NCBI RefSeq assembly: GCF_044324875.1
Contig: NZ_CP172185.1
Length of the DNA: 64,000 nt
Origin: Escherichia coli
Lineage (GTDB): Bacteria > Pseudomonadota > Gammaproteobacteria > Enterobacterales > Enterobacteriaceae
Reading direction: 5' to 3' (one strand)
In this document: positions 59,907 through 61,296 of the stretch, piece by piece
Layout of the letters: each line of letters begins with the position of its first letter
Numbering within the stretch: the first letter of the stretch is position 1
Notes under the pieces: generated by a model
What the model was told of the DNA's origin: nothing
Database searches by the model: none
What the model saw: only the letters and a program-made list of their open reading frames with translations
Position numbers and translations under genes: made by a program

Positions 59907-61296
<1,390 letters not shown>

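Follow-up and report, generated by a model that had tools for sequence, protein, structure and literature searches.

The heptamer A AAA AAG in the overlap of orfA and orfB is very probably where ribosomes slip in the programmed -1 frameshift of IS1397, through which the OrfAB transposase of this element would be made. The element carrying it is IS1397, of which the window (the whole 64-kb stretch of Escherichia coli DNA that was analysed) contains no further copy. The frameshift site is already catalogued and is real but ordinary. The features of the element and of its insertion site are collected in Table 1.

Table 1. Coordinates of the features of the IS1397 copy and of its insertion site in the window.
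Feature	Position	Strand	Evidence
Left half of the target REP/PU palindrome, GCCTGATGCGACGCGGGC	59847..59864	+	Inverted repeats, empty-site comparison
Complete IS1397 copy, IS3 family/IS150 group, 1432 bp, ends 5'-TG...CA-3'	59865..61296	+	Identity to RefSeq copies
Left terminal inverted repeat, TGAACTGCACCCCAAATGTTGGACA	59865..59889	+	Inverted-repeat search
orfA, zero frame, 173 aa, HTH DNA-binding part and leucine-zipper-like ENAYLK region	59916..60437	+	Frame analysis, domain matches
Open -1 frame (orfB), read after the shift from 60395 onward	60329..61264	+	Frame analysis
ENAYLK motif of IS1397 (60348-65; with the following A to 60368)	60348..60368	+	Protein alignment
SD-like GGAG (AGGAG 60373-77), putative frameshift stimulator, 11 nt before the heptamer	60374..60377	+	Sequence reading
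Slippery heptamer A AAA AAG, probable -1 frameshift site	60389..60395	+	Sequence, register, published cluster A_AAA_AAG_5
Predicted 38-nt irregular hairpin, putative downstream stimulator, 3-nt spacer	60399..60436	+	RNA folding
Second predicted hairpin, directly 3' of the first, -9.3 kcal/mol	60437..60462	+	RNA folding
Catalytic DDE region: D295 (60797-99), D355 (60977-79), E391 (61085-87)	60797..61087	+	Conceptual fusion
Right terminal inverted repeat, reverse complement TGAACTGAACCCCAAAACCTGGACA	61272..61296	+	Inverted-repeat search
CAC (61297-99, 3 extra nt), then the right PU half, CGCGTCTTATCAGGCCTAC	61297..61318	+	Empty-site comparison

Identity and Integrity of the Element

Over all of its 1432 bp, the element is 100% identical to copies labelled IS1397 in RefSeq, which occur at unrelated loci in many E. 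coli genomes; the full-length element was found in 1707 of 5426 complete E. coli genomes, and IS1397 places in complete genomes number roughly 7600. RefSeq describes the identical copies as 'IS3-like element IS1397 family transposase', adds the note 'programmed frameshift', and gives them a two-piece CDS equivalent to 59916..61264 of the window. The termini read TGAACTG...CAGTTCA and belong to repeats of roughly 25 nt. Size (about 1.2-1.55 kb is expected in the IS3 family), TG...CA ends, a -1 pair of ORFs, and an IS3-type DDE transposase are all those of an IS3-family element, and the family feature that this copy lacks is a 3-4-bp direct target-site duplication. A promoter scan under a strict rule detected no sigma-70-like site, either within the element or next to it. 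The sequence-only reading had regarded the element as intact rather than as a relic, and the complete identity to dispersed copies, together with the intact terminal repeats, points the same way.

Some IS1397 copies elsewhere are annotated as 'frameshifted' pseudogenes. Examples are those of the Nissle derivative EcN_Sk (L093) and of strain ZJ3920 (L096), which measure 1427 and 1431 bp, respectively. The copy of the Nissle derivative is missing 5 nt close to IS position 570. In both copies, the heptamer and the SD are still unchanged.

The Heptamer and Its Register

The letters at 60386-60398 are GG AAAAAAA G CGC, with the run of seven A at 60388-60394. The codons of orfA begin at positions divisible by 3, and the context of the heptamer is ...CAT CTC CTG GAA AAA AAG CGC CAG..., where GAA occupies 60387-89, AAA 60390-92, and AAG 60393-95. 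Because of this codon phase, A AAA AAG stands in the canonical X XXY YYZ register, and the proposal that AAA and AAG are zero-frame codons of orfA proved correct. The gene runs from an ATG at 59916 to a stop codon at 60435-37; an in-frame GTG is found further upstream, at 59907, and the CDS start given by RefSeq in identical copies is the equivalent of 59916.

A program-made list of ORFs gives GTG 60542 as the start of orfB. The -1 frame itself has a stop codon at 60326-28 and the next one at 61262-64, with nothing between, and therefore no stop separates the heptamer from orfB. HTH_21 and rve are encoded in this open stretch. The sequence-only reading had placed orfB in the -1 frame, which is the case, and had let this frame begin at 60389, which is not, since it is already open 60 nt upstream. 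It had also named stop codons of the -1 frame between 60395 and 60542 as the observation that would speak against its proposal; that interval contains none.

Within the 109-nt overlap of orfA and orfB, the only in-register heptamer of the type X XXY YYZ is the one at 60389-60395. The word AAAAAAG is not rare as such, because the 64-kb window holds 21 occurrences on both strands versus ~14 expected from shuffles. The chance of finding one with the right register and strand in the 109-nt overlap, calculated from the shuffle-based count, is roughly 0.006. A chance occurrence of the heptamer is ruled out by its register, its uniqueness in the overlap, and its conservation.

Putative Stimulators of Frameshifting

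Upstream of the heptamer, the GGAG at 60374-77 lies 12 nt before base 60390 and so counts as an SD under the rule applied by Sharma et al. 2014. The sequence-only reading does not mention this SD-like motif. Downstream of the heptamer, where that reading had suggested looking for a stem-loop, RNA folding predicts a hairpin at 60399-60436 with an energy of -12.4 kcal/mol. Its predicted stems are an outer one of CAGG/CCUG and an inner one of CUGGAGA/UC-AUCCGG. Of all 40-nt windows along the element, those that hold it rank among the top 3-4%, and the 75-nt stretch downstream has a folding z of -2.0, which would make the predicted hairpin moderately stable.

By the published criterion, a stimulatory hairpin starts shortly after the motif, begins with a G-C or C-G pair together with at least three pairs, and has an unfolding energy of at least 7.6 kcal/mol (Sharma et al. 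2014). The predicted hairpin, which starts with C-G, A-U, G-C, and G-C, agrees with this description. Its spacer of 3 nt is shorter than the usual 5-8 nt. In six sampled IS1397 variants, changes in the hairpin affect the loop or only one side, none is compensatory, and the variant NRZ94505 disrupts one outer-stem pair. Covariation neither supports nor refutes the hairpin, because the variants are too similar and the changes are single-sided or in loops.

A Signal Already in the Catalogue

The frameshift signal of IS1397 has been listed before. In Table S4 of Sharma et al. 2014 (PMC4066793), the cluster A_AAA_AAG_5 contains 59 genes, is described as 'Fam IS3/grpIS150/IS1397', and is scored Y/Y for SD and structure. 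It is flagged as true, with a footnote stating that -1 PRF 'can be safely inferred', hence not demonstrated (PMC4066793). Table S8 gives values for the IS1397 cluster of 1.00 for the SD and 1.00 for the hairpin, with a hairpin of 38 nt, a spacer of 3 nt, and a first stem of 4 bp (PMC4066793). The independent prediction made here reproduces the size, spacer, and first-stem length of Table S8 exactly. Given that the catalogue lists matching SD and hairpin values, the IS1397 cassette was already known. The heptamer A AAA AAG is also one of the most efficient -1 heptamers in E. coli (PMC4066793). A literature search whose reach did not extend to the original IS1397 papers found no experimental proof of IS1397 frameshifting.

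The Predicted OrfAB Transposase

Joining 59916..60395 to 60395..61264 yields a conceptual OrfAB protein of 449 aa, in line with the roughly 450 aa predicted by the sequence-only reading, and this fused protein is recorded in hundreds of contigs. It has Pfam matches to HTH_28, HTH_21, rve, and rve_2, with rve covering residues 286-384, and it scores 385 bits against the NCBIfam model NF033516 transpos_IS3 (cut-off 160). The motifs WVTDITEF, LHSDQGWHY, and DNAVMENFF, in which the DDE triad had been placed, do contain D295, D355, and E391. The spacings of 60 and 36 residues are those of a DD(35)E triad.

In 111 of 120 database proteins the junction reads ...EKKPPGAG..., while tandem slippage on A AAA AAG predicts ...EKKAPGAG..., so that residue 161 would be Ala and not Pro. 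Pro161 appears in most of the RefSeq/PGAP proteins because their join reads base 60396 twice. The difference between Pro and Ala at the junction is an annotation convention and not biology.

Proposed Mechanism and Rival Explanations

Ribosomes translating orfA would arrive at ...CUG GAA AAA AAG with tRNA-Lys on AAA in the P site and on AAG in the A site. A fraction of them would slip one base back to A AAA AA and go on in the orfB frame (GCG CCA GGA ...), producing the 449-aa OrfAB with its HTH, HTH_21, and DDE/rve parts; the junction to be expected from slippage at the heptamer is ...LLEKK-APGAG..., and the junction peptide would be LLEKKAPGAGEK. Ribosomes that do not slip would end at 60435-37 and release the 173-aa OrfA, a product that is usually regulatory in the IS3 family. 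Two elements would probably stimulate slippage: the GGAG 11 nt upstream, by pairing with 16S rRNA, and the 38-nt hairpin that starts 3 nt downstream. From the features described above, we infer the slippage itself, its efficiency, and the share of each stimulator. Points against this mechanism are the moderate stability of the hairpin, its short spacer, the outer-stem pair disrupted in NRZ94505 with no compensatory change among the variants, and the location of the IS1397 heptamer off the position conserved in relatives.

Another route to the same protein, instead of or besides the ribosomal one, would be transcriptional slippage, in which RNA polymerase adds one A on the A7 run (60388-60394) and a subset of the mRNA encodes OrfAB. 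The heptamer is part of this run of seven A, and one added A would give the same E-K-K-A-P-G junction; as both routes yield the same junction, the protein sequence cannot tell them apart. Some relatives have longer A runs, such as A9G in L009, and IS elements with transcriptional realignment on A or T runs have reportedly been described by Baranov et al. in 2005. However, for polymerase to slip efficiently in E. coli, a run has to be at least about 9 long, and A7, which is short for this purpose, gives little. Moreover, three features are those of ribosomal and not of polymerase slippage: the conserved placement in register, a G that is conserved at position 7, and the spacing of the SD. The transcriptional route is considered very unlikely. 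Rated lower still is a shift at a second A run, GAG AAA AAA CGA (60408-60419; A run 60411-16), by single-tRNA A-site slippage on A AAA, which would give ...EKKRQELEKK-TKVIRSL... and the peptide EKKRQELEKKTK. This run is within the overlap, the -1 frame is open there, and A_AA.A tetramers have weak frameshift activity (PMC4066793). As the P-site codon would have to re-pair with GAA, the run does not form a heptamer of the type X XXY YYZ. Furthermore, it falls within the loop of the hairpin predicted here without an SD at a suitable distance, it is changed to AAAAAG C in the variant NRZ94505, which keeps the heptamer at 60389, and the activity of tetramers is about 10-fold below that of the best heptamers (PMC4066793).

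It might also be supposed that the copy has decayed or become inactive, a relic in which the split between orfA and orfB is an accidental frameshift mutation. The copy has no target-site duplication, and the pseudogene annotations in EcN_Sk and ZJ3920 could be read in the same sense. Against this stand the 100% match of all 1432 bp to copies from many different loci, the same -1 arrangement in thousands of copies as well as in distant relatives, and the intact state of the terminal repeats, of all domains, and of the DDE triad. The relic is the least credible of the alternatives, and a programmed ribosomal shift at 60389-60395 is by far the preferred explanation of the two reading frames.

Comparison with Known Systems

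The window copy shares with IS1397 as known its sequence, its target in the centre of a PU, and the catalogued cassette, and differs from it by the missing target duplication. The nearest protein cluster found outside IS1397 is about 43% identical.

IS911, a member of the IS3 group of the IS3 family, resembles IS1397 in having A AAA AAG, an SD-like GGAG upstream, a downstream RNA structure, and OrfA and OrfAB as products. Its cluster, A_AAA_AAG_3, is scored Y/Y as is that of IS1397, and its frameshifting has been demonstrated experimentally, whereas that of IS1397 is inferred (PMC4066793). The two belong to different subgroups, and the structure in IS911 is 57 nt long with a 6-nt spacer, versus 38 nt and 3 nt in IS1397 (PMC4066793). 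IS150, which is of the same group as IS1397, has A AAA AAG and a downstream stem-loop and is listed as cluster A_AAA_AAG_37 (PMC4066793). Unlike IS1397, it lacks a conserved SD; its hairpin measures 48 nt, the spacer 6 nt, and the first stem 10 bp (PMC4066793). A comparison with the frameshift windows of IS150 and IS911 had been proposed in the sequence-only reading: the heptamer and the downstream structure are shared, while the size of the structure and the spacer differ.

The dnaX gene of E. coli, from which gamma and tau are made, is listed as A_AAA_AAG_6 and flagged as true (PMC4066793). It has A AAA AAG, an SD about 10 nt upstream, and a downstream hairpin, and the mechanistic logic would be the same. 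The outcome would differ: dnaX is a cellular gene whose shift makes a shorter product, whereas the shift in IS1397 would make a longer, active enzyme. The relatives from Bacillales, Pseudomonas, Halomonas, and others, like IS1397, have orfB in the -1 frame, an in-register A6G or A7, and GGAG 11 nt upstream. Unlike IS1397, they carry the cassette in the ENAYLKK motif.

Conservation and Displacement of the Cassette

Within E. coli, the frameshift region of IS1397 is 96.6-100% identical over 5233 places in 1720 genomes. The heptamer and AGGAG are invariant in all six sampled variants, two of which are annotated pseudogene copies. Wider comparison was made with 80 loci from one-genome-per-species contigs, whose OrfB is 51-59% and OrfA about 30% identical, and which come from Bacillales, Pseudomonas, Halomonas, Rhizobium, and others. 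Leaving out the window, orfB is in the -1 frame in 63 related loci, and in ~58 of these 63 the overlap contains A AAA AAG or A AAA AAA in register.

In the relatives, the heptamer has a characteristic place. It lies within GAG AAY GCN TAY YTA AAA AAG, which encodes ENAYLKK, in 51 distinct sequences, 37 of which have GGAG at a distance of 11 nt upstream. The Glu codon from which this GGAG arises is GAG in 40 of the 51, while the share of GAG in the rest of these genes is 39% (binomial p about 1e-8, with the sequences counted as independent despite their relatedness). In IS1397, the ENAYLK position reads CTG AAA GCC, which is non-slippery, and the upstream GGAG is missing too (GCA GAA). The pair of SD and heptamer is instead found 27 nt (9 codons) downstream of the ENAYLKK position of the relatives, with the 11-nt spacing kept. 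An alignment of the conceptual fusions has no indel, and IS1397 keeps the OrfA frame for nine residues longer (AMQEHLLEKK).

These differences suggest a migrating recoding signal: the IS1397 lineage may have lost the SD-heptamer pair at ENAYLKK and re-created it 27 nt downstream, the SD spacing being the constraint that was kept, a scenario for which the chances appear about even. It compares only the SD and the heptamer of IS1397 with those of at least 50 relatives. No description of the 27-nt shift of the IS1397 cassette was found in the literature. The shift is a modest evolutionary detail.

At six Pseudomonas loci, parts resembling OrfA and OrfB are fused in one frame: L013, L014, L016, and L022 in P. 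asuensis, and L061 and L063 in P. oryzihabitans and P. rhizoryzae. Since the parts are fused in the same ORF, these six transposase genes need no frameshifting. Five contiguous cases on short metagenome contigs (P0125, P0127, P0128, P0130, and P0133) were left out as evidence. In at least two of them, P0128 and P0133, the upstream part is read out of the OrfA frame, probably owing to assembly or indel artefacts.

The Insertion Site and the Missing Target Duplication

A REP/PU palindrome in the convergent intergenic region of rluA and djlA carries the element at its centre, with the flanks GCCTGATGCGACGC...GCGTCTTATCAGGC and also GCCTGATGCGACGC...GCGTCTTATCAGGCCTAC. REP/PU palindromes, which are parts of BIMEs, are the preferred targets of IS1397 (PMC1525189). 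The flanking genes (56199-59776 and 61329-62144) are rapA (hepA), rluA, and djlA, arranged as is usual in E. coli. Compared with complete E. coli genomes, the flanks reach a best identity of 98.8%, and a match to the whole junction was found in none of the 5426.

The window copy has no target-site duplication, with GGC on the left versus CAC on the right. In other strains, the empty site reads GACGCGGGC^CGCGTC; here it reads GACGCGGGC (IS) CAC-CGCGTC, with CAC where a repeat of GGC is expected. All seven other IS1397 copies examined have repeats of 3-4 bp (AAT, GTTA, TGGC, AAC, GCCA, TAGC, and TGC). Homologous recombination between two IS1397 copies was rejected as the cause: it cannot explain the missing duplication, because the right flank is native djlA-side sequence from the fourth base onward. 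The absence of the duplication belongs to the insertion event and not to the sequence of the element, whose coding capacity is unaffected. It is tempting to speculate that CAC could stem from the donor flank, as a 3-nt spacer carried over from an IS3-type circle junction, a linear intermediate, or a 5' overhang.

Among the 5426 complete genomes, two have an IS1397 copy between rluA and djlA; one of them (L004) was inspected, and its insertion arose independently. In this genome, E. coli ST131 MB1341 (480-2000), the IS and a TGGC duplication are bordered by PU halves of their own, GCCGGATGCGACGC and GCGTCTTATCCGGCCTAC, which are nested within the local PU (GTCTGATGC... / CGCGTCTTATCAGGCCTAC). 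The arrangement looks as if IS and PU had been inserted or recombined as one unit.

The BIME between rluA and djlA (59777-59864 and 61297-61328) is a hot spot of insertion. In strain ZH49, this locus carries IS621, a REP-targeting element of the IS110 family. K-12-type strains have yabP/yabQ and a transposase-related gene at the locus, and O157-type strains have espY1.

Implications

The insertion, a rare polymorphism of the rluA-djlA BIME, could serve as a strain marker. In practice, the copy is best annotated as one joined CDS, 59916..60395 plus 60395..61264, and neither as two genes nor as a pseudogene. The gain for the window is small: it carries one intact REP-targeting IS, whose transposase would need a standard -1 frameshift that is already listed. 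For the family, the shifted pair of SD and heptamer with its 11-nt spacing kept offers a small natural argument for selection on SD spacing in bacterial -1 frameshifting.
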